Positions 8,098-56,917 of a stretch of DNA of 58,485 nt are shown here, in pieces (positions within the stretch are counted from its first letter, which is position 1; each line of letters begins with the position of its first letter). This stretch comes from Candidatus Woesearchaeota archaeon (GTDB lineage Archaea > Nanobdellota > Nanobdellia > Pacearchaeales > GW2011-AR1). Under the pieces are notes generated by a model. That model saw nothing but the letters and a program-made list of their open reading frames with translations. It searched no databases and was not told the DNA's origin. Made by a program: the position numbers and the translations under genes. The stretch covers positions 1 through 58,485 of the forward strand of contig CAYMES010000002.1 in the NCBI GenBank assembly GCA_964389765.1. The letters are read 5' to 3'.

Positions 8098-8718
8098 ATG
8101 TATATAGTTTGCAACTCTTCTGATAGTATGAGAAGAAAAAAATGTGAAATTAAAAGATATGTTCTTACAGGAGGTTCATGTTGTGGAAAAACTACTTTAC
8201 TTAATGAATTAAGAGGCAGAGGATTTTCTGTTTTGAATGAATCTGCAAGAGAAATATTAAATCATACTAGGTTTTTAGATAATAGGCAAAATTTTGTATC
8301 TTTTCAATCAGAAATTTTTTTAAGACAATTAGAGCAAGAACAGAAAGCTTTTAGTCAGAAGCAAGATAAAGAGGTTATTTTTTTAGACAGGAGCTTAATA
8401 GATAGTTATGCATATTTTTATCATAAGTTAGGTTATGTTCCTGAAAATATATCTAAGATTCCTGAAATTGATTTAAAGAATAGATATTCTTTAGTTTTTG
8501 TCTTAGAATTATTACCTTTTAAAAAAGATGGTATAAGGATTGAAGAAGATTCTAGACAAGCAGAAAAAATTCATAAAAAAATAATTTTAACATATCAAAA
8601 TTTTGGATATTCTCTTATATTTGTTCCAGCAAAATATTCTGTATTAGAAAGAGCAGATTTTATTCTAAAAATTGTTGAAAGGAGGTATGAAAGAAATGGG
8701 GGGATGTTATGGAACTAG
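8098..8718 (+). CDS. P-loop ATPase/kinase, AAA_28 (NadR-kinase-like) family
   Basis: Walker A LTGGSCCGKTTLLNEL, about 200 aa. The start may be the internal Met at 8128. Confidence 0.55.
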   Translation: MYIVCNSSDSMRRKKCEIKRYVLTGGSCCGKTTLLNELRGRGFSVLNESAREILNHTRFLDNRQNFVSFQSEIFLRQLEQEQKAFSQKQDKEVIFLDRSLIDSYAYFYHKLGYVPENISKIPEIDLKNRYSLVFVLELLPFKKDGIRIEEDSRQAEKIHKKIILTYQNFGYSLIFVPAKYSVLERADFILKIVERRYERNGGMLWN

Positions 8719-38849: not shown

Positions 38850-39311
38850 TTATTTATGAACTTTGTGTTTTTTTATGAAGATTTTTTCCATATAAACAAC
38901 AGGAAGTCTTTTTTTATCTTTAAATTTTTTAATTCTTTTATAATTATTTTTTAAGTAAAATCTCTCAGATTCTGGGTGAGTATATAAGAATAGTTTTTCA
39001 ATTTTATTTTTTTTAGCTTGTTTTTCAATTTTTCTTAATATTAAAGAACCAACTCCTTTTTTTTGAAAGTTTGGAGAAGTATACATGTTAATTATCTCTC
39101 CTTTTTTTAAAGCTCCTACACCAATTATCTTTCCATTATGTTCACATATAAAATATTCTTTTTCACCTGCTTTTGTCAGCTGTTCAGGAGAAGTTTGTTT
39201 TTTAATTATTTTTTGTTCTCTTTTTTTAAGAACTTTAGATTGTTTCATTGTATCTTCAATTAATTTGTTAACTTGTTTTGCATCTTTTTTTTGAAGTTTT
39301 CTAATTTTCAT
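38850..39311 (-). CDS. GNAT N-acetyltransferase
   Basis: IIGVGAL...FQKKGVGSLILRKIEKQAKK (Q/RxxGxG acetyl-CoA motif). Confidence 0.8.
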   Translation of the reverse strand: MKIRKLQKKDAKQVNKLIEDTMKQSKVLKKREQKIIKKQTSPEQLTKAGEKEYFICEHNGKIIGVGALKKGEIINMYTSPNFQKKGVGSLILRKIEKQAKKNKIEKLFLYTHPESERFYLKNNYKRIKKFKDKKRLPVVYMEKIFIKKHKVHK

Positions 39312-39693
39312 TTAATTCTTTTAATATTGAAATATCTCCTGGATTCATCTTTAATTTTAATGCTTTTTCAATATCTGTTAGAAATGGCTTCCCTTCTTCA
39401 CATTTTATTTTATTCAAATCAGGAATTAATGCAAAAAAAATAAAATATTCTATTTCTAAGTTTATTTCAGGAATTTTTTTTATTGTATGTTTATAGAATT
39501 TAAAATTCTTTATAAGGATGTTAAGTTCTTCTTTTATTTCTCTTTTTAGAGTTTGTTCTGGATTTTCTCCTTCTTCTACTTTTCCTCCAAAAAAACCATA
39601 TTCAAAATTATATTTGTCCCAAGGCCTTCTATCTTGGATTAGTATTTTTTTTCCTTTTTTAAATATAGCTATTGATACTTTTTTCTTATTCAT
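39301..39693 (-). CDS. Nudix hydrolase (MutT-like)
   Basis: Nudix box GGKVEEGENPEQTLKREIKEELN. Confidence 0.8.
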   Translation of the reverse strand: MNKKKVSIAIFKKGKKILIQDRRPWDKYNFEYGFFGGKVEEGENPEQTLKREIKEELNILIKNFKFYKHTIKKIPEINLEIEYFIFFALIPDLNKIKCEEGKPFLTDIEKALKLKMNPGDISILKELNEN

Positions 39694-39702
39694 TTTTTCT
39701 GT

Positions 39703-40227
39703 TTATTCTAAAAAATTTAATCCCTTTGTTATATCTAAAGTTATTATTAAATTGTCTTGTAATTCTTGAATTTGTTGAATTATTTTTATATTTTGTCCAA
39801 TATCTAGTTGAAAAACTTTTTTATTATAATTTTTTATAGCTTGAATAGTTTCAGAAAGAGTCAGAGCTCTTCCACTTAATGCAATAACAGCATCACATTT
39901 GTCAATATAATATGCATCTCTTATTGCATAGTTGTAATTTGTTTGTATTTTTTTATCAGGTTTTGGAGTTTTGATTTTTTTATTACTTTCTTTATTTTTA
40001 TATTCTTCTATAGCAAGATATGCTGTCCATTTTTTTCCTCTTGCTTTTTTATAAGCAGAAACAACATGTTTTTGCAGTCCACCTACTTCTCCGGTAACAA
40101 TTTCATAATTTCTTTTTGCTATTTCTTTTCCAAGTTGTTCAGATAATTTCTGATGTTTTTTTATCTTGTGTTCTTTGTCATTATCTCTGCATGAACCAAT
40201 TATCAGGATTTTCATTTTTCCTTCCAA
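39703..40227 (-). CDS. LOG/TIGR00725-like Rossmann-fold protein
   Basis: KILIIGS..., EIVTGEVGGLQ and DAVIALSGRALTLSE layout. Confidence 0.4.
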   Translation of the reverse strand: MEGKMKILIIGSCRDNDKEHKIKKHQKLSEQLGKEIAKRNYEIVTGEVGGLQKHVVSAYKKARGKKWTAYLAIEEYKNKESNKKIKTPKPDKKIQTNYNYAIRDAYYIDKCDAVIALSGRALTLSETIQAIKNYNKKVFQLDIGQNIKIIQQIQELQDNLIITLDITKGLNFLE

Positions 40228-42394: not shown

Positions 42395-42546
42395 TTAAAA
42401 GAAAGGTAGATAATTCGAAATAATTTAAATATAGTATTTAATAGATAATATTAATGAGGATAGTAACAAGATGACTTTATATCTAATTTTTGAGAAAATG
42501 CTAAAAATATTAAGATAATAGGATTATAATTATTTAAAAAATGAAG

Positions 42547-43218
42547 TTATAGAATTTCTACTATATCTCCAATATTTTTATTTAGTTTATATAGTTTAGG
42601 AGGACGATGAGAAACATCTTTTTTTAGTTCTTTTGTAGGTTTGACAAGATTAAGTGAGAAGATTTTTTTTCTGAAATTTCTCTTGTCAAATTTTTTGTTA
42701 AACACAATTTCATAAATTTTTTGTAGGGATGTTAGGGTGAATTTTTTTGGAAGTAAAGAAAAAGCAACAGTAGTATATCCAAATTTCCACTTTAATCTTT
42801 TGATAGCATATTCAAGAATCTCTTGATGGTCAAATGCAAGTTGAGGAAATTTATAAGCAGAAAACCATCTTGCATCAGATGCATCTGTAGAAGCCCTTAA
42901 TTTTTGTTGTTCTGATTTTATTAAGACAAAATAAGCAACTGTTATAACTCTTCCTCTTGGATCTCTTTCTGGATTTCCAAAAGTATATAACTGTTCTAAA
43001 TATGCAGTTTTAACTCCTGTTTCTTCTTCTAATTCACGTTTAGCAGCTTGTTCAAGACTTTCATCAAGATGAACAAATCCTCCAGGAAGTGCCCATTTAT
43101 CTTTAAATGGTGCAACTCCTCTTTTAATAAGTAAAACTTTAAGATCATTATCTTTAATAGTGAATATAACTATATCTGCAGTTACTGCTGGTTTTGGAAA
43201 ATCTTTAAGATTTTTCAT
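42547..43218 (-). CDS. nrtR: NrtR-type Nudix-related transcriptional regulator (Nudix plus C-terminal winged helix)
   Basis: WALPGGFVHLDESLEQAAKRELEEETG Nudix box, FDHQEILEYAIKRLKWKFGYTTVAFSLLPKKFTLTSLQKIYE C-terminal domain, and position at the end of the NAD cluster. Confidence 0.75.
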   Translation of the reverse strand: MKNLKDFPKPAVTADIVIFTIKDNDLKVLLIKRGVAPFKDKWALPGGFVHLDESLEQAAKRELEEETGVKTAYLEQLYTFGNPERDPRGRVITVAYFVLIKSEQQKLRASTDASDARWFSAYKFPQLAFDHQEILEYAIKRLKWKFGYTTVAFSLLPKKFTLTSLQKIYEIVFNKKFDKRNFRKKIFSLNLVKPTKELKKDVSHRPPKLYKLNKNIGDIVEIL

Positions 43219-43235
43219 AGTGTTATTAAGACAAT
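43219..43235. promoter_or_regulatory. Candidate NrtR operator (AGTGT-N7-ACAAT)
   Basis: agtgttattaagacaat sits directly upstream of the nrtR ATG, between a TATA-like atatttaaat and the start codon. It is similar to 52334-52350. Confidence 0.35.
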
Positions 43236-43268
43236 AAGATATTTAAATCTTATCAATTTTTTTAAGAA

Positions 43269-44141
43269 CTACATTAATATAGCACCAGGATATTGCCAGT
43301 CATATCTCAGATGTCCATCTGGAAAAAATATAAGTTGTCTTAGTTCGTCTGTATCTGCTTTAATAGTTAGACAGTCTGAATTTGCAATATTCTGTCCATT
43401 TAAATCATAGACAATTGCTCCATGTCCAAGAGTCATTAGTTTTCTTGCATTTTTTTGAAGAAAATTCCCAATTTCTTTTATTTTTGATTTGGGAAGAGCA
43501 TGTTTTTTTGTCCATTCACGTATTTTTTTATTTTCAGAATTTTCAGAAGCTTTTATTGAGCGTATTGTTAGTTGTTCTACATTATTTTTCTTTGCAAATT
43601 GTGCAAGTTTTTTAACTTCCTTTACACTGTCAATTGAACCTTTAAACATCATGCAACATAATCTTATAGAATATCCAATATCATGCAGATTTTTAATAAC
43701 TTCTTCTAAATCTATATATTCTGAGTTAGGAGTATAGACTTTTTTGTTTTTATCTTTAGAATAATTAACTATAGAAATTGCCATTGTGTTAAGTCCTAAT
43801 TCTTTCCATTTTTTTAAATAAGGTTTATATTTTTGAAATTGTTTTCCAAAAACTAATGCATTTGTCTGGAGTTCTATTAAAGGAAAGTTGAATTTTTTCA
43901 TATGTTTTAGAAATTCTGTAAGTTGTTCAGGATATAGGGTGGGTTCTCCTTTCCCAGTTATTAGAACTGTAGATACTCCATTAACTTGAGATAATCTGCA
44001 TGCTTTTTCAAAATTTCCCCAATTAACTTTTGGTTGTTTAAAATTAACTCCTTGTTTAGGAGTCATCTTAGAAATACAATAAGGGCATTTCGCATTACAA
44101 GCAGCAGTTCCAGCAACAATTGTGAAGGTTTGGATTTTCAT
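43269..44141 (-). CDS. Radical SAM enzyme of unknown function
   Basis: CNAKCPYC (CxxxCxxC) near the N-terminus and ITGKGEPTLYPE (GGE-like SAM motif). Confidence 0.75.
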   Translation of the reverse strand: MKIQTFTIVAGTAACNAKCPYCISKMTPKQGVNFKQPKVNWGNFEKACRLSQVNGVSTVLITGKGEPTLYPEQLTEFLKHMKKFNFPLIELQTNALVFGKQFQKYKPYLKKWKELGLNTMAISIVNYSKDKNKKVYTPNSEYIDLEEVIKNLHDIGYSIRLCCMMFKGSIDSVKEVKKLAQFAKKNNVEQLTIRSIKASENSENKKIREWTKKHALPKSKIKEIGNFLQKNARKLMTLGHGAIVYDLNGQNIANSDCLTIKADTDELRQLIFFPDGHLRYDWQYPGAILM

Positions 44142-44175
44142 TATTCTGCTTTCTTTTTTATTAACTTTAAGGTAT

Positions 44176-44766
44176 TTATTGATATAGATTGTTTTTTTCT
44201 ATATACTGTTTAATTTTTAAAGGAACCATGTTTTTAAAAGGTTTTCTTTTGTTAATATTTTGTCTGATTTTAGTTGAACTTATATTACTTAGAGAGCTGG
44301 TTATTTTAGCAAGAATTTTGAGATTATTTATATTAATAAATTCATATCCTTTTCTTTTAAATATTATAAATTCAGATATATTTAGCAATTGTTTATAATT
44401 ATACCATTTATGAATTTCATATAAGATATCAGAACCAACAACTATGGAAAATTTAAATTTAGGATATTTTTTTTGAAGTTTTTTTAAAGTTTTTAAAGTG
44501 TAATTTTTTCCTTTTGATTTAAGTTCAATTTTAGAGATTTTTATTCTTTTTTTAAAATTAGAAAGAGGAGATATAGCAAGTTTAATCATGTTTATTCTGT
44601 GTTTTGCAGAAATAAGTTTTTTGTTAAATGCATGATTTTTACATGGAATAATCCATAATTCATCTATTAGATTTTTAGATATAATTTTTTTAATTAATTT
44701 AATATGTTCTTTGTGTATGGGATTAAAAGAACCTCCAAATAATCCAATTTTCTTTTTTACTTGCAT
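44176..44766 (-). CDS. nadD: Nicotinate-nucleotide adenylyltransferase (bacterial NadD type)
   Basis: GLFGGSFNPIHKEH (HxGH-type motif) and SSTKIRQNI. Confidence 0.85.
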   Translation of the reverse strand: MQVKKKIGLFGGSFNPIHKEHIKLIKKIISKNLIDELWIIPCKNHAFNKKLISAKHRINMIKLAISPLSNFKKRIKISKIELKSKGKNYTLKTLKKLQKKYPKFKFSIVVGSDILYEIHKWYNYKQLLNISEFIIFKRKGYEFININNLKILAKITSSLSNISSTKIRQNINKRKPFKNMVPLKIKQYIEKNNLYQ

Positions 44767-44767
44767 T

Positions 44768-45553
44768 TTAATTGTTGTTTTTAATAACTTTTAAAGGAAT
44801 ATCTGATATTTTAATTTCCACTATATCTCCAGTATTAAAAGGATAAGTTAAATTTGAGTCAAGAGCTATAATTCCTCCTTCATATCTTAATGATTCAATA
44901 ATTATTTTTTCTTGAGTAGAGATTTTTCCTTGTAATATCTTTGGTTTATAGATATTTCCGAAATATGGCTCTCTGACAATAAACCTTAATTCCTGCTCCT
45001 GAAAATGAAAGGGTTCTCCTCCTGCAGAACTATACCATGCAGTACTTCCAGAACCTGTAGAAATAAGAACTCCTGAACTTCTATGTTCTTCTTTTTTATC
45101 TTTAAATTTTATCCTGTATCTTGAAGTATGAAAATGTCTGTCAGAACCAACATAAATTTCATTTAAAGCATGAAAAGGAATTTCTTTTCCATTTAATTTT
45201 AATTTTGCTCTTGTTCTATGAATAATTTCATGGTTACCTTTTAATATATTGTGAAGTTGATTTAATTCAGATTCTTTTAAACTAGTTAAAGCTCCTTCAC
45301 TCATTTCTGGTTCTGAATTTATTCCTATTATTGGAATGTGTTTTAAAAAATGTGAAGCTCTTATAAAAGTTCCATCTCCTCCTATGGTTATTATCATATC
45401 TGTATCTGAGAAATCTTCTTTTATTAGTTCATGAGAATCTTTTGATAGATATTCCATGTTGTTCTGTCTTAAAATATCTTTTACTTTTTCAATTGTATTT
45501 GCATGGTTTTTTGTCAGCCTTTTGCTGTAAGTTATTAAAATTTTATTAAACAT
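44768..45553 (-). CDS. nadK: NAD kinase
   Basis: IITIGGDGTFIRA, ALNEIYV and STGSGSTAWYSSAGG motifs. Confidence 0.88.
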   Translation of the reverse strand: MFNKILITYSKRLTKNHANTIEKVKDILRQNNMEYLSKDSHELIKEDFSDTDMIITIGGDGTFIRASHFLKHIPIIGINSEPEMSEGALTSLKESELNQLHNILKGNHEIIHRTRAKLKLNGKEIPFHALNEIYVGSDRHFHTSRYRIKFKDKKEEHRSSGVLISTGSGSTAWYSSAGGEPFHFQEQELRFIVREPYFGNIYKPKILQGKISTQEKIIIESLRYEGGIIALDSNLTYPFNTGDIVEIKISDIPLKVIKNNN

Positions 45554-45554
45554 T

Positions 45555-46616
45555 TTAGTTTTTGTTTTTTAATTTATAAAGTTGTTCTCCTAATTTTTTT
45601 ATTTTTTCAGAATCTTTAAGTGTTTTTATCCATTGTTTTGGAAAGATGTTTCCATGTTTAGCTCCTGCTAAAGCTCCATATATTGCTCCAGTAGTGTCAC
45701 AATCTCCTCCATAATTTATTGTTTCAATTAATCCATCTAAAGGTTTATTCCAGTATTTTTGAAACATAAATAATGCAAAAGGATAACTTTCAAAAGCAAG
45801 AGCAGAATTTCCAAGTTTATAAAAAGCATTATCTGAACTTGTTTTTTTGTTTTGAGAAATCCATCTTAGTTTTGATAAAAGACTTCCTCTTTCATATAAT
45901 TTATCTTCAGGAGAAAGAGGTAGTTCATTTTTTTCACAACATTGTAATAAGCTGTTTAAAAATTTTTGTTTTGAAAGGTTATTATCATTCTTTTGAAGTA
46001 AAGTGTAAACTGCATGAGCTTGGACAATACCTCCTGCAATTGCTCTTTTATCTTTATGCGTAGCTTTTGCAACTTGTTCTGAAACTGTTATTCCTAAGTT
46101 ATATTTGCCTGTTGCATGCATGTAAATTCCAATAGGAGAGATTTTCATAATTGGCCCATTTCCTAATCCAGGTGTTATTCCAGATGAATATACGCTAGAC
46201 CCTTTTAAGATATTTTCAAATGCTTTTTTTGTTGTTCCTCCAAATCCTCCTCTAATATGTCCATCTTCTTGCTTGCATTTTTTGTAAGCTTGAACTTGTT
46301 TTTTGCATAAATCTTCTAAATCAAGAGTTTTATTTTGAATAATTGATTTAGCCATTGCAATAGTAAGAATTGTGTCATCTGTATATTCTCCAAGACAGAG
46401 ATCTCTGGTATAATATTTAAGTTCTCCGTGTTCATCTTTTTTTATTATATTGCCTTTATCATCTTTTGGTATTAATGGAGCAATAGGGCAAGTAACCCTG
46501 CCTTCTGGAACATATTTCTGAATATGTTTTTTAGACCAAGCTTCAACTGGCATCCCTAAACAATCCCCAATTCCACACCCTATAAGTGTTGCAATATATT
46601 TTTCTTTAGTTTTCAT
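45555..46616 (-). CDS. ADP-ribosylglycohydrolase (ARH/DraG family)
   Basis: GCGIGDCLGMPVE, YTDDT and GGDCDTTGAIYGALAGA motifs. Confidence 0.85.
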   Translation of the reverse strand: MKTKEKYIATLIGCGIGDCLGMPVEAWSKKHIQKYVPEGRVTCPIAPLIPKDDKGNIIKKDEHGELKYYTRDLCLGEYTDDTILTIAMAKSIIQNKTLDLEDLCKKQVQAYKKCKQEDGHIRGGFGGTTKKAFENILKGSSVYSSGITPGLGNGPIMKISPIGIYMHATGKYNLGITVSEQVAKATHKDKRAIAGGIVQAHAVYTLLQKNDNNLSKQKFLNSLLQCCEKNELPLSPEDKLYERGSLLSKLRWISQNKKTSSDNAFYKLGNSALAFESYPFALFMFQKYWNKPLDGLIETINYGGDCDTTGAIYGALAGAKHGNIFPKQWIKTLKDSEKIKKLGEQLYKLKNKN

Positions 46617-46643
46617 TTTTTCCTCCTTGTTTGTTTTAGGTTT

Positions 46644-47684
46644 TTATTTTTTAAATAATTTATTTATTAATCCTGTTGCTTTTCCAAATCTCTGTTTATA
46701 ATTACCTGAAATAGTTACAAATTCAATTCCATAGTGTTTATACATTTGTTTTAATTTTTCATTGTTTTTTTGTCTTAATTTTTTTTCTCCTGCAAATCTT
46801 ATTCCATCATTTACCCATTTGATATCTGGCTCAAGATAAATAACTAAATCATAATCTTGCATTTTTATAATATTATCTATTAATTCAGATTTTTGCCCTT
46901 TAAAATACATATCTAAATAATATTTAGTTATAACTGCTTCACTATCAACAAATATTAATTTATTGCTTTGTTTTAATTTTTTTTGTTGGAGTAAAAAATG
47001 TTCCATTGCAATTAAATCAAACATATCTCTTGTTAGAAAATTAGAATATTCTTCACAATAATCTCTTCCAACTTCATGAACATAATTTGTATTATAGAAT
47101 TTTGCTAATTGTTTTGTTAATGTTGTTTTTCCGCAGCTTTCTGTTCCTACTATAGCTACTTTTTTAACAAAATATTGTCTTACACAATCTGGAAGTTTTT
47201 CCCAGTTACCATATATGTTTTTCCTTATTTGAGTAGAAGATATATTTATTGTCTTTCTTTTATCATCTATTACAATGTGTTTTGATTTTGGATAGTTTTC
47301 TCTGAAAACTTTTTCATATTTTTTTTCTGAACTAAAGACATAATCTATATCTTCAGGAATTGCTTGTTTAATTTTTTTTGCTCCATCTTTCCAATCATAA
47401 TCTTCTATACCTTTTTCATCTTTTATATGTATAATTTCAATATTATCAAGGTCATTAAACATTTGTCCTAAACATGATAAACGAACTTGAGCTGGAATAT
47501 ACCTAATTCCTTGTTTTTTACATAGTTCTTTATCTCTTTTTTCTGATGAAGTTAATACTACATATAATTTATCTACATGATTAGATGCACTAATAACTAG
47601 ATATGTATGCCCTAAATGTGGAGGAAGGAATTTTCCTCCTACAAATCCTGTTTTTTGTTTATTTGCCATTGTGTTTTTTTTCAA
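46644..47684 (-). CDS. nadR: NadR-like bifunctional NMN adenylyltransferase / ribosylnicotinamide kinase (no HTH)
   Basis: GGKFLPPHLGH (HxGH), ISSTQIR, and Walker A VGTESCGKTTL in the C-terminal half. Confidence 0.85.
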   Translation of the reverse strand: MKKNTMANKQKTGFVGGKFLPPHLGHTYLVISASNHVDKLYVVLTSSEKRDKELCKKQGIRYIPAQVRLSCLGQMFNDLDNIEIIHIKDEKGIEDYDWKDGAKKIKQAIPEDIDYVFSSEKKYEKVFRENYPKSKHIVIDDKRKTINISSTQIRKNIYGNWEKLPDCVRQYFVKKVAIVGTESCGKTTLTKQLAKFYNTNYVHEVGRDYCEEYSNFLTRDMFDLIAMEHFLLQQKKLKQSNKLIFVDSEAVITKYYLDMYFKGQKSELIDNIIKMQDYDLVIYLEPDIKWVNDGIRFAGEKKLRQKNNEKLKQMYKHYGIEFVTISGNYKQRFGKATGLINKLFKK

Positions 47685-48390
47685 GTTTTTTCCAATTTAT
47701 ATAACCATAAACAGCATTAACTAAAAATGCTGACCACATTATTAATACACTTATATCATTTCCACCTGTAAATAAAACATATACCCACATAAAAATTGAA
47801 ATTACATCAATTGTTATCCATAATAGCCATTGTTCTTTTACTCTCCTGACCATTAATATCATTGCTATAACAGACAAGACAGTTGATGCTGAATCTACAA
47901 ATGGAAGAGTTCCTTTTAATAACATTAATATTAAACCATAGCTAAATATTCCTATAATAGATATAGATGCCCATATTCCTTTTTCTTTCCAAGGCATATA
48001 TCTAACTTTTACATCATCTTTTGTTTTGTTTTTGTTAACATGTTTTTTCCAGTAATAAATTCCTACAAATTGCATTGGAAGATAATATATCATGTTTAGC
48101 ATTACTTCTCCAAAATATCTGCTTTGATATGCAACATAAGCATATGCAAGAATATTTACAATCCCAAAATAATAATTGCTTATTCTTCCTTTTGCAACTA
48201 AAACCACACATATCATTCCTGTTAAAGAAGCTGTTAAACCAATCCAGCTATCTTGCCATATAAAAAATAAATATAAATTTATTAGAGTGAAGCTTAATAA
48301 CCATATTTTTTCAAATAATGTCCAGTCTTTTACATATTCTCTTATGAATTTTGCTATTTTCTTTTCTGGTTTTACATATTTAGTTTTCAT
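47659..48390 (-). CDS. pnuC: Nicotinamide riboside transporter PnuC
   Basis: About 7 TM helices, 243 aa, Trp-rich helices typical of PnuC. It overlaps both neighbours. Confidence 0.7.
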   Translation of the reverse strand: MKTKYVKPEKKIAKFIREYVKDWTLFEKIWLLSFTLINLYLFFIWQDSWIGLTASLTGMICVVLVAKGRISNYYFGIVNILAYAYVAYQSRYFGEVMLNMIYYLPMQFVGIYYWKKHVNKNKTKDDVKVRYMPWKEKGIWASISIIGIFSYGLILMLLKGTLPFVDSASTVLSVIAMILMVRRVKEQWLLWITIDVISIFMWVYVLFTGGNDISVLIMWSAFLVNAVYGYINWKKLEKKHNGK

Positions 48391-48806
48391 TTTTTCCTCC
48401 TTGTTTGTTTTATATAATCATCTATTATTTTTTTATGGTCAAATGCAAGTAATGGAAGCTGAGAAATTGGAAACCATCTAACATTTTTAGCATCATCTCC
48501 TGCTTTTGTCCTGCCTTTAAACATGTTTGCAAGATAAACATGGGTTATATAATGTGCTCTTGGATCTCTGTCTGGAGAAGAATATACTCCAAATAACTTT
48601 AAATCCTGTATATTCACTTTTAGTCCTGTTTCTTCTTCTAATTCACGTTTAGCAGATTGTTCAAGAGTTTCTTTTCCATAATCAATGTGTCCTCCAGGAA
48701 GAGCCCATCTATCTTTAAAGGGTTCATATCCTCTTTGTATTAAGAGTATTTTTTCTTGTTTCCTTATTATTATGTCAGCTGTTGAGCACGGATTTTTATA
48801 TTGCAT
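48387..48806 (-). CDS. Nudix hydrolase (ADP-ribose pyrophosphatase-like)
   Basis: WALPGGHIDYGKETLEQSAKRELEEETG and ..LAFDHKKII, closely resembling the Nudix half of the NrtR at 42547-43218. Confidence 0.7.
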   Translation of the reverse strand: MQYKNPCSTADIIIRKQEKILLIQRGYEPFKDRWALPGGHIDYGKETLEQSAKRELEEETGLKVNIQDLKLFGVYSSPDRDPRAHYITHVYLANMFKGRTKAGDDAKNVRWFPISQLPLLAFDHKKIIDDYIKQTRRKK

Positions 48807-48808
48807 TT

Positions 48809-49528
48809 TTATCTCCTTATTTTAAATATTGGAGGTATGTTTTTTTTATGTTCAGAACCTTTTCTTAGTTTCTGAACCTTATCATAGATTTCCCCATTGT
48901 TTATTTTTTGTTTTAAAACATCATCTATTTGTTGATAAGTTATTCCTAATTCATCTTCATCTGTTTGTCCTTGCCAAAGTCCTGCACTTGGTTTTTTGTT
49001 TATTATTTGTTTTGGGAGTGCAAGAAGATTGGCAATTTCATAAACTTCTGTTTTATAGATGTTTCCTATTGGTTCTATATCTACACCACCATCTCCATAT
49101 TTGGTGAAATATCCAATCTCTATTTCTGATTTATTTCCAGTTCCAATAACCATTCCATCAATAGAATTTGCTACACCATAAAGTAGCTTCATTCTTTCTC
49201 TTGCCATTAAGTTTCCTTTAGTTATTTTATCAATTTCTTTGTCAAGTACTTGTTCAAGTTTTCTAATATTGTTGTCTACTACTTTTCCAATGTTTATTTC
49301 TCTTGAATTGATTTCTAAATTATCAATAACTAATTGTGCATCAGATGTATCTTGATTTTTATAAGGCATTGAAATTCCCCAGACATTTTGTTTTCCTATT
49401 GCTCTTACAGCTAATGCTGCTACAACAGTTGAATCAATTCCTCCAGAGATTCCTATAACTGCTTTTTTATTTCCAAGATATTCTTTTAACTGGATTTCAA
49501 TATCTTTTATGATTTTTTGATAGTTCAT
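48809..49528 (-). CDS. nadE: NH3-dependent NAD+ synthetase
   Basis: PP-loop GISGGIDSTVVAAL and the GTGNKSEIEIGYFTKYGDGG block. Confidence 0.9.
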   Translation of the reverse strand: MNYQKIIKDIEIQLKEYLGNKKAVIGISGGIDSTVVAALAVRAIGKQNVWGISMPYKNQDTSDAQLVIDNLEINSREINIGKVVDNNIRKLEQVLDKEIDKITKGNLMARERMKLLYGVANSIDGMVIGTGNKSEIEIGYFTKYGDGGVDIEPIGNIYKTEVYEIANLLALPKQIINKKPSAGLWQGQTDEDELGITYQQIDDVLKQKINNGEIYDKVQKLRKGSEHKKNIPPIFKIRR

Positions 49529-50331
49529 TTTTCTTCTACAATATTTAGTATCCTTGTTTTTAATTCTAAGTCAACATTATTTGACAGATATCTTCCATTT
49601 GATTTTTTGAAAGTTACATATGGTTCTTGCAATCCTGCTGAAACTGTTAAAACATCATACATAGCTATTTTGTCTCTTTGTTTGTTTCTTTTTGTATAAT
49701 CTAGCCAGTTTATTGCAGATTCATATAAAAAATTTCCAAGAGGATTTCCTTTAAATTGTTGTAATTCTTTTTTTGTAAATGAAATTTTAAATGAATCTTG
49801 TTTTCTTATTAGATATTTCTTCCATTTTTGTTCTAAGACTTTTTCAGCAGATATTTTATCAACTTTAAAATTATGAGAACTTTCTAAAGCACCCATAAAA
49901 TACATCTGGGTGATGTTTCTTATGCTTGGATTTTGCTCAAGTTGTAAAGCTATATTTGTTAGTGGGCCTATACAAATTAAATCTGTATTTTCATAATCTA
50001 GGTTTTTTAAAGAGCAATGGCTATCTAATGTTTGTGTTATTTCTTGTGATGTTAGAGCTTTTTGCTCAATTCCTGTCCAATATTTTTGGATATTAGGTGA
50101 AGTTAGTGTTCTTTTTTCACCAGCAATTACTTTTATTCCTTGATTTTGTTTGTTCATAAGTTTGATTATTTTTCTTGCTATTTTTGCTCTTATTTTTGTA
50201 TCTCCATGTACAGTTGTTATTGCTTTGATTTTTTCTGGATGATATTTTAAAGCATAAGCTATTGCAAATACATCATCACAATCTGTACCTATGTCTGTAT
50301 CTATTATTTTATTTTTCATTTTACATAGCAT
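49525..50331 (-). CDS. Nucleoside hydrolase (IUNH family)
   Basis: N-terminal IIDTDIGTDCDDVFAI (DxDxxxDD Ca/ribose motif). Confidence 0.7.
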   Translation of the reverse strand: MLCKMKNKIIDTDIGTDCDDVFAIAYALKYHPEKIKAITTVHGDTKIRAKIARKIIKLMNKQNQGIKVIAGEKRTLTSPNIQKYWTGIEQKALTSQEITQTLDSHCSLKNLDYENTDLICIGPLTNIALQLEQNPSIRNITQMYFMGALESSHNFKVDKISAEKVLEQKWKKYLIRKQDSFKISFTKKELQQFKGNPLGNFLYESAINWLDYTKRNKQRDKIAMYDVLTVSAGLQEPYVTFKKSNGRYLSNNVDLELKTRILNIVEEK

Positions 50332-50373
50332 GAGCTAGATATTTAATTTTGTTTTCATTTTAATTAATTTTAT

Positions 50374-51018
50374 TTAAATTTTTGAAGGAATTGGTTTTTC
50401 TTCTAATATTTTTCCTATATCTTTTGTTTTAGTTAATTTTGCCCCTAGTTTTCTCCAATTATTAAATGGTAAAGGAAGATTTGGCAGTTCTTTTATTGCA
50501 TCTGTTGGAATGTAAACTTTAATACCTTTTTTAAGCAACCCCTTTACTGCAAAATCTACACAGACATTTGTAGCTACTCCATATACTACTGCTCTATCTG
50601 GATTAATTGCTTCTAAGATTTTTTCTGTTTTATAATTGCCTGAAAATACATCAAATTTATCTTTGTAAATTACAATATTTCTTTCTTCTCTAATTTCGTC
50701 TAAATCTAATTCATTATCCTCCCAGTGAACTTTGTAGGGATTTACAGGACTGGTAATAGGTATAAATTCTGCTCCCCTTGTATATTCTAAACAATGAGGG
50801 GGAAATGTTTTTTTAAAATCAGGATTATCTGATAATTCTTCTGAATTTCTCTTATGCCAGTCTGCTGTATTGATTACTTTTAATCTTTTTATTTTTGCTA
50901 TATGAGTTAGTTTTTCTAAATTTCTTTCTATTTCTTTTGCTCCTGGAACAGGCAAGGCTCCTTTATCATTTCTCATAAAATCATATTGTGTGTCTACATT
51001 CCAAAATATTGTTTCCAT
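50374..51018 (-). CDS. pncA: Nicotinamidase (isochorismatase family)
   Basis: WNVDTQYDF, ADWH, and VYGVATNVCV (catalytic Cys context). Confidence 0.8.
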   Translation of the reverse strand: METIFWNVDTQYDFMRNDKGALPVPGAKEIERNLEKLTHIAKIKRLKVINTADWHKRNSEELSDNPDFKKTFPPHCLEYTRGAEFIPITSPVNPYKVHWEDNELDLDEIREERNIVIYKDKFDVFSGNYKTEKILEAINPDRAVVYGVATNVCVDFAVKGLLKKGIKVYIPTDAIKELPNLPLPFNNWRKLGAKLTKTKDIGKILEEKPIPSKI

Positions 51019-51020
51019 TT

Positions 51021-52292
51021 TTATCTGCCTCCTAATCTTAATTCTAATTTATTATTGCTTCTATAATTTCTTCCTATTTTAGAGATTGCTTGCATATGGA
51101 TTGGATCTGGTCCTACAGCTATTATATCCATTGTTGCCATTTTAGCTGGATAGATTCCTCCTACTCCAAAAGCTCCGCATAATCTTCCTTCTAGTCCAAG
51201 TATTTTTTCAGCCCTCATAAATGCTTCAACTTTTTTTGGATTGCCAAAACCACTTGTTAAAAATATCTTTACATCTTGAAAACCTGCATTATCTAAACCT
51301 TTTCTAACTGCATATGCTCCTGTAACTGTAACTCCATTTCCAAACCAGTATTTTTTATCTTCTTGAGGAATTTTTATATTTCTTCCTATTAAATCATCTA
51401 AAGCATTTTTGTCAGGAGTAGAAAGTGCTCCCTGACAGATGTTTTCTCCACATGTATCAATTCTTACTCCATAAAGAGTGCTTCCTTGTTGTTCTAGAGC
51501 TTTAGCAGTTTCAACTGCATCATCTACTTCTTTATTTGCGTAGTCTATTAAAGCAATTCTTGGAATAGCTTCGTCCATATGTTTGTCAAATGCTTTTGTT
51601 GATTCTACAACTGCTTTATTATATCCATATCTCCAAGCATAGACATTTTCTGATGCATGAGGAATTGTTCCCATTCCTTTTAATCCTGCAGTTGCTGCTC
51701 CTATATCTGTTGAAGTAGATTTAGCTCCTGCTTCAAATGCAGCTTGTGTTATAGCAGCATCTAAATCCCATCTCCAATGGCGTGCTCCAAAATAAGAGAC
51801 AGGCCTATCTTGAGCAGCTTCTACAACTAGTTGCATTTGTTTTTTTACATCATCTAAATGATTAGCTACATCATAATTGTCATTTATTTTTGTAGTTTCA
51901 GCTGTTAAAACTCCAAGATACATTGTTTCTAATTCAACAATATCCTGGACAGGAGCTGTAATTAAAGCTTGAGTATCTTTTGGAGCATAAAATTTTCCTT
52001 CTTGCAGAGCTTTTACATTTCCTTTATGTTCAACTAAAGAGGTATATTTATCTAAAATTGCAAGAGCTTCATCAATTCCATAAGTTTTTCCTGGACCTTT
52101 TCTTATAAAAACCTGTCCAATTACCCATGGATTTAAGTTTTCTGCTTTTAATATCTGATTTGCTCTTAAAAAATATTTGTCAATATATGGTTGATGATTT
52201 TCTGGTAATTGATAGATTTGTTGCCATACTTGTCTATTTTCTTTAATTGCATCTTGAGTTTTTTGTTTTTCTTGTTGAATTTGTGTTTGCAT
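51021..52292 (-). CDS. pncB: Nicotinate phosphoribosyltransferase-family enzyme
   Basis: 423 aa with GTIPHA and YGVRIDTCGE (type II PRTase barrel motifs). It is the first gene of the NAD cluster. Confidence 0.7.
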   Translation of the reverse strand: MQTQIQQEKQKTQDAIKENRQVWQQIYQLPENHQPYIDKYFLRANQILKAENLNPWVIGQVFIRKGPGKTYGIDEALAILDKYTSLVEHKGNVKALQEGKFYAPKDTQALITAPVQDIVELETMYLGVLTAETTKINDNYDVANHLDDVKKQMQLVVEAAQDRPVSYFGARHWRWDLDAAITQAAFEAGAKSTSTDIGAATAGLKGMGTIPHASENVYAWRYGYNKAVVESTKAFDKHMDEAIPRIALIDYANKEVDDAVETAKALEQQGSTLYGVRIDTCGENICQGALSTPDKNALDDLIGRNIKIPQEDKKYWFGNGVTVTGAYAVRKGLDNAGFQDVKIFLTSGFGNPKKVEAFMRAEKILGLEGRLCGAFGVGGIYPAKMATMDIIAVGPDPIHMQAISKIGRNYRSNNKLELRLGGR

Positions 52293-52333
52293 TTTTTGAA
52301 TTTTTTAATTTATTTTATTGTTTTTCTTAACAT

Positions 52334-52350
52334 AGTGTATATTTTACACT
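52334..52350. promoter_or_regulatory. Candidate NrtR operator (AGTGTA-N5-TACACT palindrome)
   Basis: agtgtatattttacact lies 42-58 nt upstream of the pncB ATG and abuts the TATA-like ctttataaag. Confidence 0.4.
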
Positions 52351-52492
52351 TTATAAAGATTATTGTAGTGCAGTATACATATTGTTGTTAATACACTAAG
52401 TATTTATATTTTCAACGATAATCTAAGTTTGAAGTGACACTTAGTTTAATTGAATTTCATGATTTTTTGATTTTTGAAATTTTATATGTGAT

Positions 52493-53125
52493 TTATTTAG
52501 GAATATCTGGAAAAAGATGTTCTAGAAGATATGGCATTTCATCTTTCCAAACATCCCAGATTTTAACCATGTTTTTTCTTATAATTTTAGGTATTTGTTG
52601 ATTAATATATGCAATATCCATTAATTGTAATGAAACATCACCTATAGCAGAATACATTTTTGCTAATCCATTTATATTTCCATACACTTCAATAGCAGCA
52701 TCATTAATTTCTTTGTCAGTTAGTTCTCTAGGTGTAATTTCATCTGATTTCTGTCTAACTTTATTAACAAAATCCCCTATTTTCTCTGAAACTTTTATTA
52801 ATGGTTCAATATATTCATTACGAACACCTTCTGGAATATTATCAATAGTTTCACCTTCTATTTTAGATCCTTCTATAAGTGCTTCAAGAGAAGCATATCC
52901 TTCACTAAAATAAGTTCCTGCTTTGTTTAGTTGAGCTTTCCTACTAAAAAATTGTGGAAATATTATATTGAAGATGACCAGTGTACTAAAATCTCTTTTT
53001 TCAATTAATTTTTCAGTTACTCTTTTATTTAATTCTTGTTCTAATTTAGGATTGAAGTTTTCTTTAATTTTATTTATGTACTATTTATCTAGTCTTTGTA
53101 AAACATATTCTCTTGATGCAACCAT
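52493..53125 (-). pseudogene. Hypothetical gene interrupted by an in-frame TAG at codon 15
   Basis: ATG at 53125 with one continuous 211-codon frame, broken only by TAG at 53081-53083. There is no ATG/GTG/TTG for about 130 codons after it. Confidence 0.5.
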
Positions 53126-53209: not shown

Positions 53210-56200
53210 TTAAAATAATTTCTTTTGTCTGCTTCCTTGAACAATTTCTTCTATAATTTCTTCAACATTTACATTAAAAACTTTGAAGATATTTTCAACA
53301 GCAGGTTTTATTTGATTGTTTAAATAATAAGAGATATCATATCTACCTTTTTCATTTGGAAGTTTTACTCTTTCTCTTACTAATTGTTTTGTTTTGCTTT
53401 TTCCATTTTTTGTTTCTGCAACATAATATTCTATTAAATCTCCTTGTTCTGCTCCTATTCCTTGTTCTTCCATTTTTAAAGCAGCTATAACATGAGGACC
53501 TTTAGCTATATATTCAGAAAGAGGTTTTTTTAACTGTGTTTTAATAATTAATTGTTTTTTTTCTATATTTTTATTTTTTACTTTTTTAATAGTTTTTTTT
53601 AGATATTTAAGAGCAGATTTTTCATTTCCATTTTTTAAAATAAGTTCTAGAACTTTATTTTGTAATTCACGAGCAAGATTACACCAGTCTCTTCTTACTG
53701 TTTCAAATCCCCTTACTTTTAATTGTTTGTTATAATCAATTAAAGCATATTTTTTCTTTGCTCCTGTTGAAACAGTTCTTTTTGAAACAAATAATCCTCT
53801 TTTATAAAAATCTTCTAATTCAAGTTCCATTATTCCAGGCAACTTAGAGTTTAGTTTATTTAAAAATTCAAGAGTTTGTTTTTGAGTTTTGTTATTTAAG
53901 AGAAACGCGATTGAGTCTGTGTTATGAACTAAGACATAGTTAGCAAAGAATCTATGATTATCTCTAACCTCAATATCATAAATGTAATTAGGAGTTTTTA
54001 TTTTTTCAATATTTTTAACATTTTGTATATCAAATTCAAATTGATTTACTATACTTTTTTTCAAACTTTTTGAAGTTACTTGTGCTCTTTTATTTTTTCT
54101 TTCTAATAAAAATCCAATTTTTTCTGCAAATGCTTCTTTATTTTTTACTATTATATTTTTCGAATAACTATCAGAGCTATAAATTCTATCTTTAGTTTTA
54201 TAAGTGTTTTTAGTATTTTCTTTAAATACAGAATGAGAAATTCCTATCCGATATAGTAGTTTCCTAGCTTCTTTAATATAATCTTCTCTAACTGAGGTAT
54301 ATTTAATTATTGGAGCTCCTCCTCTTAACATCACACATCCATTAGCTGAAAATAATCCTCTAAGGAATGAAGCAATATTTTCTTCTTTTTCATAAAATAA
54401 CCATCTAGGAATAATCTTTTTTTTGCTTTTCCTACAGTTATTAAAAACCAAATTCACTAGTTTAAGCCCATTAACTACAATATCTCCTTTTTCTCTTTCC
54501 CATATATTTTTAATATAACCTTTTTTTTGTAAAGGAGTTATTAACTTGTTTTTTAATTCTTTAGTGTCTTTTCCTGCAGAAATCCTTAAATAATAATTCT
54601 TGCCATATTTATTAGGCATAAAACTTCCATCACCAATAAAATAACCTAAGAATTCATATATCTCTTTTGGATACTTTTTCTCTTTAGAATTTTCACAATT
54701 AATTTTTTTTAATGTGATTATACTATTTGCTTTTTCCTTTACCTCTCCAGGTTTTATTTCAATGAGCCTCTTAATTGGATTTTGTTTTTTTTCATTACTT
54801 TGATTGTGTTTTGTGGATTGATAACCAATTAAAGAGTGATCTTCAGTAACATCAATATACCAATGATTTGTGAACCAAACCCTATAAATTTTTTTATTGC
54901 ATTTATGCCTCATTACATAAACAATTGGTTTAAACACAGAATTTCCCTCCTTATCAATAGTTAGCACCTCAATATTCTTTTTAAAATTATATTCTTTTCC
55001 AAGTCCTGTTTTTTTATCTATCCTTTCAAAAATTTTTTCAATTTCTTCTTCATATACATTGCCTTTTTTTCTAATAAAGATTTTTGTTTTTCCATCAATA
55101 CTGTCAGAATATATAATTTCATAACCTTGTTTTTTTATATTTTCAATTGCATTTAGTATGTTTTCTTTTGCTAATTTAGCAGTAGATGCAGCTGCCTCTC
55201 TGCAATAATATCTTGCTCCAAAATATCCTTGATATCCATAAGCTGCATTTGCTAATAATTTATAAGCATTGCTTCTTGCTTTTGTTATTGGATTTTTATT
55301 TTTATTATATTGTCTTTTATATTGTTTTCTTAAATTAATTATTTCTTTTAACATTTTAGGAAAAAATCCTTGTTTTTTTGAGAAATAAACATTTCCTTCT
55401 TTGTCTAGATTTACTTTAATGATATCTTTATTTTTTAATGTAGATTTATTTTCTATTAGTGTGGAAAGAGATAAATTATATGATACAATAACAGAAGCAT
55501 ACATTGATGTGAAATCAAACATCCCAATATTTTCATATAATCCAGGCAAGGGTTGGAAGACAAATGCTCCTTCATATTTTCCTTTTGCTCTTCTTTTGCC
55601 TATTTCATCGTGAAGAGGACGTTTTTCTGCAATTTCATTATAAAGATGCAAGTTATGTAAGATATAATCTTCTACATGTGCTGACATGCTGTTTCTTGTA
55701 ATTCTGAAAATTGGTTCTTGGATAATATTGGTAAATTCTTGTATATCTGGCCATGTTTTTTTAAATAACAAGTAAGTTAGTTTTGAATCTTGTAAATTAT
55801 ATTTAAAGAAATCTTTCCAGTCATTTTTATCTAGATATTCTAATTTTGAAAAATCAAAATCATGTTTTTTCTCTCCCAATAATTCAGAAGCTATATCATT
55901 TAATCCAAGAGTCTCGCTCTGGAGGTATTGAGAATAAACTGATTCTATAAATCTATAAATGTCTATATGAATTATGCCAGTTATTTTTCCTTTACTTAAT
56001 CTTCCTTTTGAAAATATTGGTTGGCTGTTGTCTAAACCAATATCTAATTTAATGTTGTTATTTTCAGCTGCTGCTCTTAGATATGGTAAGTCAAATCCAT
56101 CTGAAAAATAACCAACTAAAAAATCTGGGTCATAGTCTTTTACATATTTTACAAATTGTTTTAACATTTGTCTTTCACTTGGAAAACTTTGTACAAAATC

Positions 56201-56917
56201 AGGGTTTTTTGAATCAGCAGATTTCCATGTTAAAACTTTTTTAAATTCCTTTTCTTTATTATGTTTATCAGAAGTTTTACCATATAAAGAAATCATTAGG
56301 ATGTCACCTTTTCCAATTTCAAATTTACTTGTTTCTATATCAAATGCAAGTATTTTTGGTTTGAATTTTAGATTTTTTTGTTCTTTTTGTTTTAGTTTTT
56401 TAAAAGAATTTAATTTATAGCAGTTTAGGTCAAGGCATTCAGATAAATAGCCAAAATCTTCACTATCTAACTTTTCAATGTTTACATTATGCCATTTTAA
56501 AGGCAAGATGTTTTTATCCATAATATATTTTGTAATTAGACGCATATCATATTCTCTTCTTGCATATATCTCAGAAAAATCAAGTTCATCTGCAACAGCA
56601 TGAGAATCTTTATAGTTTTCAACAAATATTTTAATGGCTTTATGTTTTTTTCCGAGAAAATTTTTATCATGAATTTCAGTTTTAAGAACTTTTGTTTTTC
56701 TTCCTGCTCTTTCAACCTGGATTTTTTCAATTTTTTGTTTTATTTTTTGAATTTTTTTATCACTTGTATTTTGTTTTAATATTGCCCAGAAATTTGGTTC
56801 ATAACTATCTATTATACAGATTTTTTCATTTTGAGAAGTTCTTCCAAATATCCTTATGTAGTTTTTACCTTTCCAGTCAAAATAATCATAATCAAGAGGT
56901 ATAAATTTGAGGTTCAT
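53210..56917 (-). CDS. polB: Family B DNA polymerase (intein-containing precursor)
   Basis: Exo I FDIET, motif A DFTSMYASVI, motif B KLLANAAYGY, and motif C YSD/TDS split by the intein. The extein is 841 aa. Confidence 0.93.
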   Translation of the reverse strand: MNLKFIPLDYDYFDWKGKNYIRIFGRTSQNEKICIIDSYEPNFWAILKQNTSDKKIQKIKQKIEKIQVERAGRKTKVLKTEIHDKNFLGKKHKAIKIFVENYKDSHAVADELDFSEIYARREYDMRLITKYIMDKNILPLKWHNVNIEKLDSEDFGYLSECLDLNCYKLNSFKKLKQKEQKNLKFKPKILAFDIETSKFEIGKGDILMISLYGKTSDKHNKEKEFKKVLTWKSADSKNPDFVQSFPSERQMLKQFVKYVKDYDPDFLVGYFSDGFDLPYLRAAAENNNIKLDIGLDNSQPIFSKGRLSKGKITGIIHIDIYRFIESVYSQYLQSETLGLNDIASELLGEKKHDFDFSKLEYLDKNDWKDFFKYNLQDSKLTYLLFKKTWPDIQEFTNIIQEPIFRITRNSMSAHVEDYILHNLHLYNEIAEKRPLHDEIGKRRAKGKYEGAFVFQPLPGLYENIGMFDFTSMYASVIVSYNLSLSTLIENKSTLKNKDIIKVNLDKEGNVYFSKKQGFFPKMLKEIINLRKQYKRQYNKNKNPITKARSNAYKLLANAAYGYQGYFGARYYCREAAASTAKLAKENILNAIENIKKQGYEIIYSDSIDGKTKIFIRKKGNVYEEEIEKIFERIDKKTGLGKEYNFKKNIEVLTIDKEGNSVFKPIVYVMRHKCNKKIYRVWFTNHWYIDVTEDHSLIGYQSTKHNQSNEKKQNPIKRLIEIKPGEVKEKANSIITLKKINCENSKEKKYPKEIYEFLGYFIGDGSFMPNKYGKNYYLRISAGKDTKELKNKLITPLQKKGYIKNIWEREKGDIVVNGLKLVNLVFNNCRKSKKKIIPRWLFYEKEENIASFLRGLFSANGCVMLRGGAPIIKYTSVREDYIKEARKLLYRIGISHSVFKENTKNTYKTKDRIYSSDSYSKNIIVKNKEAFAEKIGFLLERKNKRAQVTSKSLKKSIVNQFEFDIQNVKNIEKIKTPNYIYDIEVRDNHRFFANYVLVHNTDSIAFLLNNKTQKQTLEFLNKLNSKLPGIMELELEDFYKRGLFVSKRTVSTGAKKKYALIDYNKQLKVRGFETVRRDWCNLARELQNKVLELILKNGNEKSALKYLKKTIKKVKNKNIEKKQLIIKTQLKKPLSEYIAKGPHVIAALKMEEQGIGAEQGDLIEYYVAETKNGKSKTKQLVRERVKLPNEKGRYDISYYLNNQIKPAVENIFKVFNVNVEEIIEEIVQGSRQKKLF
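53921..55102 (-). mobile_element. 394-aa intein with LAGLIDADG homing-endonuclease domain in PolB motif C
   Basis: Starts SIDGKTKIF after ..IIYSD, has block B VTEDHSL, LAGLIDADG motifs LGYFIGDGSF and FLRGLFSANGCV, and ends YVLVHN followed by TDSIAF. Confidence 0.88.

Follow-up and report, generated by a model that had tools for sequence, protein, structure and literature searches.

The locus described here raises the question of how a tiny, symbiont-type archaeon of the DPANN group (Diapherotrites, Parvarchaeota, Aenigmarchaeota, Nanoarchaeota as well as Nanohaloarchaeota) comes to hold, in one row, genes for the salvage, recycling and regulation of nicotinamide adenine dinucleotide (NAD), several of which belong to bacterial-type families, and of what controls them. 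The stretch of DNA that was analysed, hereafter called the window, is a complete contig of 58,485 nucleotides (nt; CAYMES010000002.1) assigned to a Candidatus Woesearchaeota archaeon; all positions refer to it, and all its features lie on the minus strand unless stated otherwise. Our analysis makes it likely that the cluster is a single operon for NAD salvage, recycling and homeostasis, predicted to be under the control of the regulator NrtR.

The cluster consists of twelve open reading frames (ORFs) packed within positions 42547-52292, with a spacing between neighbours of −11 to +50 nt, as expected from the co-directional genes with overlaps or tiny gaps described in the original prediction, which was made from the DNA letters alone. 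In order of transcription, they encode a phosphoribosyltransferase (PRTase), PncA, a nucleoside hydrolase, NadE, a Nudix hydrolase, PnuC, NadR, an ADP-ribosylglycohydrolase (ARH), NadK, NadD, a radical S-adenosylmethionine (SAM) protein and NrtR. All twelve family assignments proposed earlier held in Pfam and NCBIfam hidden Markov model scans, and the share of the window given to the cluster, estimated at about 17 percent, is confirmed by its span (9.8 of 58.5 kb). With 25-31% GC, the cluster resembles the flanks and the rest of the window; being even throughout, the composition shows none of the breaks that were looked for inside the cluster. The flanking genes encode a family-B DNA polymerase with a LAGLIDADG intein, CDC48, a type II methionine aminopeptidase, Nop2p and seryl-tRNA synthetase. 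Since these genes are archaeal and the nearest relatives are metagenome-assembled genomes (MAGs) of DPANN archaea, the archaeal DPANN setting is supported; a chimeric assembly of the window is unlikely. Strong AAGGAGG sites had been said to precede the genes; a GGAGG-type site is present ahead of four of the twelve only (those of PncA, Nudix, PnuC and ARH). The gaps between the genes of the cluster contain no run of five T. A run of six T (42536..42541), 5 nt past the nrtR stop codon, is a candidate archaeal terminator that may close the operon. An Rfam scan found no NAD riboswitch.

The last gene (42547..43218) encodes a protein of 223 amino acids (aa), in which a Nudix domain (PF00293, 79.9 bits) is followed by the C-terminal winged-helix domain of NrtR (PF21906, NrtR_WHD, 85.5 bits); to judge from its model scores, it represents a diverged NrtR subfamily. 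In some Woesearchaeota and Nanoarchaeota, NrtR homologues (P0312, P0317, P0319) are about 380 aa long and carry an extra domain of about 160 aa. In bacteria, NrtR has as its operator a palindrome that is about 21 bp long and has GT-N7-AC as its core (PMC2330246). Without using this knowledge as a prior, we took 31 DPANN loci and counted the perfect 6-N-6 palindromes in them. The commonest was AGTGTA-N5-TACACT, found in 12 loci; extended to the 19-mer TAGTGTA-N5-TACACTA, it gave 26 sites at up to one mismatch in the DPANN loci, as compared to 0-2 in shuffled sequence, and 79 distinct sites over all loci. This palindrome includes the GT-N7-AC core of the bacterial NrtR operators (PMC2330246). 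The sites are located 5' of the genes with which the clusters begin, and tandem arrangements are frequent, with a spacing of 22-47 bp common in related loci. A TTTAWA box abuts the operator at 17 of the 26 sites in named DPANN loci, and a TTGAC box precedes none of the 26. The second commonest palindrome, GGAATA-N5-TATTCC, was rejected as a signal: it is inside the nadR coding sequence (DGIKYIP).

In the window, the proximal candidate NrtR operator, AAGTGTAAAATATACACTA (52333..52351), is a perfect 6-N5-6 palindrome with the GT-N7-AC core and one mismatch to the 19-mer, 41 nt 5' of the PRTase ATG. It is abutted by a TATA-like box, TTTATAA (52351..52357), which is predicted to be part of the main operon promoter. 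A distal candidate operator, TAGTGTATTAACAACAATA (52380..52398), with two mismatches to the 19-mer, lies 47 bp 5' of the proximal copy, and the stretch just 5' of it reads ATATAAATA. A second, internal promoter is predicted in front of nrtR itself, where the TATA box TTTAAATA (43240..43247) is found about 25 nt 5' of the nrtR ATG, together with a weaker operator, TATTGTCTTAATAACACTA (43218..43236), whose last base is the A of the start codon and which is a predicted site of autoregulation. The layout formed by TTTAAATA, two bases, TTATTGTcttaataACACT and ATG is kept in at least 15 related loci. The distance of about 25 nt between TATA box and start codon leads to the prediction of a leaderless mRNA; nrtR is therefore probably transcribed without a leader from its own autoregulated promoter. 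The palindrome ATAAGAT-N6-ATCTTAT 5' of nrtR is not taken as an element of its own, since it arises from the TATA box and the operator together.

The distribution of the cluster was analysed by running the twelve proteins with tblastn on fetched loci, and from the called genes. Variable versions of the cluster, with shuffled gene order, were found in more than 25 DPANN MAGs (Pacearchaeota, Woesearchaeota and Nanoarchaeota), where the proteins are 60-72% identical to those of the window and archaeal genes, such as those of thermosome and TruD, adjoin. One locus (L012) contains all twelve gene kinds, and five others (L002, L008, L021, L027 and L029) contain eight to ten. The closest relatives of NadR, at 60-67% identity, are found in MAGs whose titles read Pacearchaeota, Woesearchaeota, Nanoarchaeota or 'archaeon', save two that are probably mis-binned. 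The cluster had been regarded as striking for this genome; this survey shows, instead, that a large DPANN group normally has its NAD genes arranged in this way. One related DPANN cluster (L086, 5834-7654 and 1532-2755) encodes a NadD-NadK fusion, a NADAR-domain protein and, beside NadE, a DUF1152 protein, as well as a second radical SAM protein, of the B12-binding type.

The individual genes support the pathway logic that had been proposed, namely Preiss-Handler salvage, riboside salvage by PnuC and NadR, NADP formation and ADP-ribose recycling. The first gene (51021..52292) encodes a type II PRTase of 423 aa and is separated from pncA by 2 nt. Its best NCBIfam score was obtained with the nicotinate-PRTase model NF006415 (131 bits, with a cut-off of 243), all such matches being below cut-off; in Pfam it matched QRPTase_N only, under the gathering score, with no match to PF04095 (NAPRTase), and the best match in the PDB was 2I14, the small nicotinate PRTase of Pyrococcus furiosus. 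These matches indicate that the protein is most likely a nicotinate PRTase of the small archaeal type, and this is the weakest of the twelve calls. The earlier description as a "pncB-like PRTase" is kept as to the probable nicotinate-type family and corrected as to the type, most likely the small archaeal one. Some DPANN loci have the classical PF04095 nicotinate PRTase in the slot of the small type.

The PncA-type nicotinamidase (50374..51018, 214 aa) contains the isochorismatase domain (PF00857, 61.7 bits), the motifs of the Asp/Lys/Cys triad (D9, K and GVATNVC) and the metal-site motif DWH...PPHC, and misses the equivalog level (PRK11609, 35 bits, cut-off 174). The inosine-uridine-type nucleoside hydrolase (49525..50331, 268 aa; PF01156, IU_nuc_hydro, 100 bits) has the N-terminal motif DTDIGTDCDD and would split nicotinamide riboside. 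NadE (48809..49528, 239 aa) is an NH3-dependent NAD synthetase without glutaminase domain (NF010587, 275 bits, above 255; PF02540, 245 bits). The stand-alone Nudix hydrolase (48387..48806, 139 aa; PF00293) has an intact Nudix box; its best NCBIfam matches are the Nudix part of NadM-Nudix and that of NrtR, and it would act as an ADP-ribose pyrophosphatase. It is a paralogue of the N-terminal domain of NrtR, with 46% identity to NrtR residues 7-145. A stretch of 54 nt (43009-43062 in nrtR, 48618-48671 in the Nudix gene) is 93% identical at the DNA level; although the proteins are only 46% identical overall, which points to a local gene conversion event at the Nudix box.

The nicotinamide riboside transporter PnuC (47659..48390, 243 aa) is well above the cut-offs of TIGR01528 (152.7 bits vs. 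42.45) and PF04973 (166.5 vs. 27.3). NadR (46644..47669, 341 aa) joins NMN (nicotinamide mononucleotide) adenylyltransferase and ribosylnicotinamide kinase (NF005988, 228 bits, above 201), with the motifs GKFLPPHLGH (HxGH), ISSTQIR (ISSTxxR) and GTESCGKT (Walker A); its start is the ATG at 47669 and not the TTG at 47684, in agreement with protein P0001. The helix-turn-helix (HTH) repressor domain at the N terminus is found in the enterobacterial form of NadR only, and the other forms are without it. The NadR of the window aligned to positions 61-407 of the NF005988 model and, since the alignment begins at position 61, it lacks the HTH domain. Elsewhere in the window, an ORF on the plus strand (8098-8718) is 25% identical over 168 aa to the kinase half of NadR and may be another small-molecule kinase of the AAA_28 type.

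The ADP-ribosylglycohydrolase family protein (ARH/DraG; 45555..46616, 353 aa) matched PF03747 over residues 10-322 (175.9 bits), and its best PDB matches are the archaeal MJ1187, which is the closest, a Thermus ARH and ARH3. A segment of 49 nt, made of the leader, the GGAGG site and the first codons (MKTK), is 86% identical between the ARH gene (46605-46653) and pnuC (48379-48427), so that a translation-start cassette appears to have been duplicated between the two. NAD kinase (44768..45553, 261 aa) matched PF01513 and PF20143 above gathering score and has the GGDG motif. The nicotinate-nucleotide adenylyltransferase NadD (44176..44766, 196 aa) is of the bacterial type (TIGR00482, 153.6 bits vs. 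a cut-off of 112.45), as compared to 25.9 bits with the archaeal NadM model TIGR01527 (cut-off 181.2). The view that NadD, NadR, PnuC and NrtR are of bacterial type is thus supported by family models and nearest relatives. No NadM was found in the window and, in a search confined to the window, nadA, nadB and nadC were absent; some related DPANN clusters additionally carry nadA and nadB.

The radical SAM protein (43269..44141, 290 aa; PF04055) carries a CX3CX2C motif at residues 15-22. The invariant cysteines of its family are C15, C19, C22 and C163 only, without auxiliary-cluster cysteines. It scored 60.5 bits with the MoaA model TIGR02666 (cut-off 284), and the cysteines of the C-terminal MoaA cluster are absent; with the pVip model NF038283 it scored 30.4 bits (cut-off 180). 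More than 1,200 homologues were found, named at best 'radical SAM protein', and a PDB sequence search gave one weak match only. In the AlphaFold2 model (predicted local distance difference test, pLDDT, of 91), the fold is MoaA/viperin-like, a partial TIM barrel: Foldseek gave template-modelling (TM) scores of 0.69 to MoaA and 0.68 to viperin-like enzymes (root-mean-square deviation 3.5), with a sequence identity of 10-17% and scores far under the family cut-offs. A fold search of BFVD with this model gave nothing informative. MoaA (GTP 3',8-cyclase) and viperin-like enzymes act on nucleoside triphosphates.

The company kept by this family was then considered. Three homologues, looked up independently, were all in NAD clusters with NrtR or with PncA, PncB and NadE. 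Among the metagenome loci with enough flanking sequence, 51 of 59 have at least one gene of the query set (the genes of the NAD cluster, NrtR and a partner gene of pyridoxal phosphate (PLP) fold) within 8 kb of the radical SAM gene. The commonest neighbours in the 59 loci were NadE (27), NrtR (24), NadK (23), the PLP-fold partner (22), PncA (21) and NadA (19); the PLP-fold partner, which the window does not contain, was the sole query-set neighbour in several of them. In IMG/VR, 80 contigs likewise carry homologues, at 27-53% identity. Several of these homologues sit inside PncA-PncB-NadD-NadE sets beside genes for RtcB, RNA ligase, CCA-adding enzyme and thymidylate synthase; the operator TAGTGTA-N5-TACACTA was not found on the IMG/VR contigs with the radical SAM gene. 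The link of the family with NAD genes, mainly those of the Preiss-Handler branch, is therefore robust in DPANN archaea, bacteria and IMG/VR contigs. More tentatively, and with a probability that we place somewhat short of even, the protein could be an undescribed pyridine-nucleotide enzyme of the Preiss-Handler branch, belonging to an NrtR regulon that moved between the Candidate Phyla Radiation (CPR), DPANN and large phage-like genomes, the operator being re-used before sigma-70-type and TATA-type promoters.

Two further observations on the family were made. The IMG/VR contigs L177, L181-L183, L200 and L214, which are 34-234 kb long and classed as viral, carry the radical SAM gene in PncA-PncB-NadD-NadE sets. 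On another contig (L124, 10001-11823), the radical SAM and PLP-fold genes form a two-gene unit directly behind TTGACA and the operator, with no other NAD gene within 10 kb; the same unit is present in L116, L125, L151 and L165, which are bacterial-type contigs, L124 alone being verified as bacterial.

The viperin-like fold and the occurrence of homologues in Preiss-Handler sets next to tRNA-repair genes on IMG/VR contigs, together with the ARH gene and the two Nudix-type genes of the cluster, would fit an alternative in which the cluster serves mainly as a counter to NADases and ADP-ribosyltransferases, of viral or host origin, that deplete NAD, like the NAD-reconstitution pathways of phages, and not as housekeeping. 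We consider this unlikely. PADLOC gave no convincing match, only generic weak ones, the 31 bits of pVip being at the level of any radical SAM protein; the genes are those of ordinary salvage plus the universal steps, regulator and operator belong to the housekeeping NrtR regulon, and the cluster is stable in the lineage and not a variable island.

The operon has counterparts in bacteria. Among the metagenome loci anchored on the radical SAM gene, the same operator was observed on GC-richer contigs (GC 0.40-0.65), behind TTGACA-like boxes at −35 spacing; one of these contigs (L124) is bacterial by RpoB, RpoC and EF-G. The identity of NrtR to the window protein is 47-59% on the GC-richer contigs, 33-38% in Bacillaceae and 59-72% in DPANN, and the closest bacterial NrtR sequences, found as homologues of that of another such locus (L155), are named Candidatus Sungbacteria, Harrisonbacteria and Daviesbacteria, all of them CPR names, and are intermixed with Woesearchaeota and Nanoarchaeota entries. 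The NrtR palindrome of Bacillaceae, ATTAACA-N3-TGTTAAT, is unlike the DPANN operator. The nearest NadR outside DPANN is that of Francisellaceae (53-54% identity), followed by Bacillaceae (43-49%). The NrtR subfamily, the operator and the radical SAM gene are thus common to DPANN and to bacteria, including CPR lineages, and for this reason the regulon would have crossed the domains long ago and been refitted to archaeal promoters. That the transfer went from bacteria to archaea we infer solely from the wide bacterial spread of the families.

Neighbour-joining trees of NadR and PnuC placed the window proteins in a large DPANN clade and showed two Woesearchaeota sequences nearer to Bacillaceae and some very divergent metagenome sequences; more than one exchange is likely because of these. 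In two MAGs titled Woesearchaeota (L039 and L082), NadR is nearer to the Bacillaceae type, with 46-50% identity to the window NadR, and in L039 the same operator type is found 5' of pnuC; these loci hint at a second, separate acquisition. The archaeal TATA promoters and the lack of a composition break indicate an old, domesticated acquisition and not a recent one, and the cluster is a mosaic, in which the PRTase (2I14-like) and the ARH (MJ1187-like) have their closest solved relatives in archaea. The idea that a whole regulon was acquired horizontally is supported as far as horizontal origin is concerned, with a bacterial nearest NadR outside DPANN and with nearest bacterial NrtRs of CPR name whose loci share the operator; it needs to be changed with regard to the mosaic, the PRTase and the ARH being nearest to archaeal proteins.

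Some points weigh against the operon and regulon reading. NrtR scored 199 bits against an equivalog cut-off of 400 (NCBIfam NF050029, ADP-ribose-responsive repressor), and its Nudix box is intact, which leaves room for hydrolase activity, in addition to regulation or in its place. Within the window alone there are four operator matches at up to two mismatches, with 1.7 expected, which is not significant, and the case for the operator consequently rests on cross-genome conservation. Operator binding, effector and co-transcription are all deduced computationally, the substrate of the PRTase is not fixed by sub-threshold nicotinate-PRTase scores, and the weak family matches of the radical SAM protein do not give its role. 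DPANN NadR does not form one clean clade in the unrooted neighbour-joining trees, built on a limited sample, and these trees do not fix the direction and number of transfers. The intact Nudix box and the score below the cut-off, together with the near-duplicate Nudix gene in the same cluster, could be taken to mean that the genes are merely co-located, that 'NrtR' is an ADP-ribose pyrophosphatase and that the palindromes are promoter elements or sites for a different factor. This is very unlikely, considering that the winged-helix domain PF21906 is present (85 bits), that the palindrome with the NrtR core tracks nrtR in two domains of life, before different promoter types, and that a copy of it is found at the nrtR start in at least 15 loci. 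Finally, the possibility that this genome alone took up a bacterial regulon in recent times, or that the assembly joins bacterial and archaeal DNA in a chimera, is suggested by the bacterial-type families of NadD, NadR, PnuC and NrtR and by the nrtR-pnuC-nadR operon of Bacillaceae, but is highly improbable in view of the even GC over cluster and flanks, of TATA-type promoters common to other DPANN loci, of a cluster present in more than 25 DPANN MAGs at 60-72% identity beside thermosome and TruD genes, and of nearest bacterial proteins that are only 33-59% identical.

In the operon as predicted, an NrtR dimer located between TATA box and start site of transcription would prevent RNA polymerase from being recruited. 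ADP-ribose, a product of NAD consumption, would free NrtR from the operator by analogy with bacterial NrtR, of which it is the published effector, relieving DNA binding (PMC2330246). We infer the mode of repression and the effector because they are those of the usual archaeal repressors and of bacterial NrtR. Once expressed, PnuC would take up the riboside, to be converted by the kinase and adenylyltransferase of NadR, while the Preiss-Handler route would proceed from the nucleoside hydrolase through PncA, PRTase and NadD to NadE, and NadK would form NADP. ARH and Nudix would release ADP-ribose and then break it down; the Nudix hydrolase may thereby also clear the inducer, closing a feedback loop. 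In addition, nrtR would be expressed from its own autoregulated promoter.

Some features of the surroundings deserve mention. The polymerase gene is separated from the operon promoter by a region with an open frame of about 195 codons (52493-53080), in which no ATG, GTG or TTG comes before codon 131 or so and of which the ORF listing gives the last 64 aa only. A frame of this length is improbable by chance in DNA of 25% GC; either a decayed gene or one that starts in an unusual way may be present here. The family-B DNA polymerase gene (53210-56917) is split by the intein, which has its LAGLIDADG homing-endonuclease domain and covers residues 606-1000, approximately. On the other side, beyond the Nop2p gene, adjacent small genes (38850-40227) encode a GNAT acetyltransferase, a third Nudix hydrolase (130 aa) and a SLOG cluster-4 protein. 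This trio may be nucleotide-related; no operator was found there.

In the open-access full-text literature we found no description of the cluster, of an archaeal NrtR or of the link between this radical SAM family and NAD genes, nor any paper on the family itself. The cluster is an archaeal version of the bacterial NrtR regulon already known, enlarged and adapted in its promoters, and the radical SAM enzyme is its novel part. It offers a testable picture of NAD upkeep in ultra-small archaea, based on riboside import, on nicotinamide and ADP-ribose recycling and on the sensing of turnover via ADP-ribose. It also provides a clear example from nature of the move of a bacterial repressor, with its operator, onto archaeal TATA promoters, the operator serving bacterial promoters in related clusters; this bears on how regulons outlast a transfer from one domain to another and on the exchange of genes between CPR and DPANN. 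Moreover, the radical SAM family, widespread and almost always beside NAD genes, provides a candidate new enzyme.

Comparison with known systems places the cluster closest to the bacterial NrtR regulons (Rodionov et al., 2008; PMC2330246), with which it shares a Nudix and winged-helix regulator encoded beside its targets, a palindromic and often tandem operator with the GT-N7-AC core, a regulator gene that is here predicted to be autoregulated, and targets that include pnuC, nadR, pncA, nadD, nadE, ADP-ribosylglycohydrolase and, most likely, nicotinate PRTase. It differs from them in its archaeal host, in an operator that abuts TATA boxes and is lineage-specific, in the probably leaderless nrtR, in the intact Nudix box of NrtR, in the radical SAM gene of the set and in the joining, in one twelve-gene unit, of modules that are scattered over different bacteria. 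The Bacillaceae operon nrtR-pnuC-nadR (L033-L084) has the same three-gene core, with identities of about 50% for PnuC, 43-49% for NadR and 33-38% for NrtR, but consists of three genes only and has another operator and bacterial promoters. The NAD clusters of CPR/Patescibacteria type (such as L155, L166 and L124) share the operator and the clustering of NAD genes (NrtR 47-59%, radical SAM protein 48-52% identity), whereas their operator lies behind TTGACA −35-like boxes, their GC is higher and their radical SAM gene is often paired with the PLP-fold gene. With the NadM-type NAD metabolism of archaea the window has in common a PRTase nearest to 2I14 and an ARH nearest to MJ1187, while its adenylyltransferase steps come from NadD and NadR. 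Lastly, the radical SAM protein resembles MoaA and viperin-like enzymes in the partial TIM-barrel fold predicted for it (TM 0.68-0.69) and in the N-terminal CX3CX2C, but its family keeps company with NAD genes and not with molybdopterin or kinase/defence genes.

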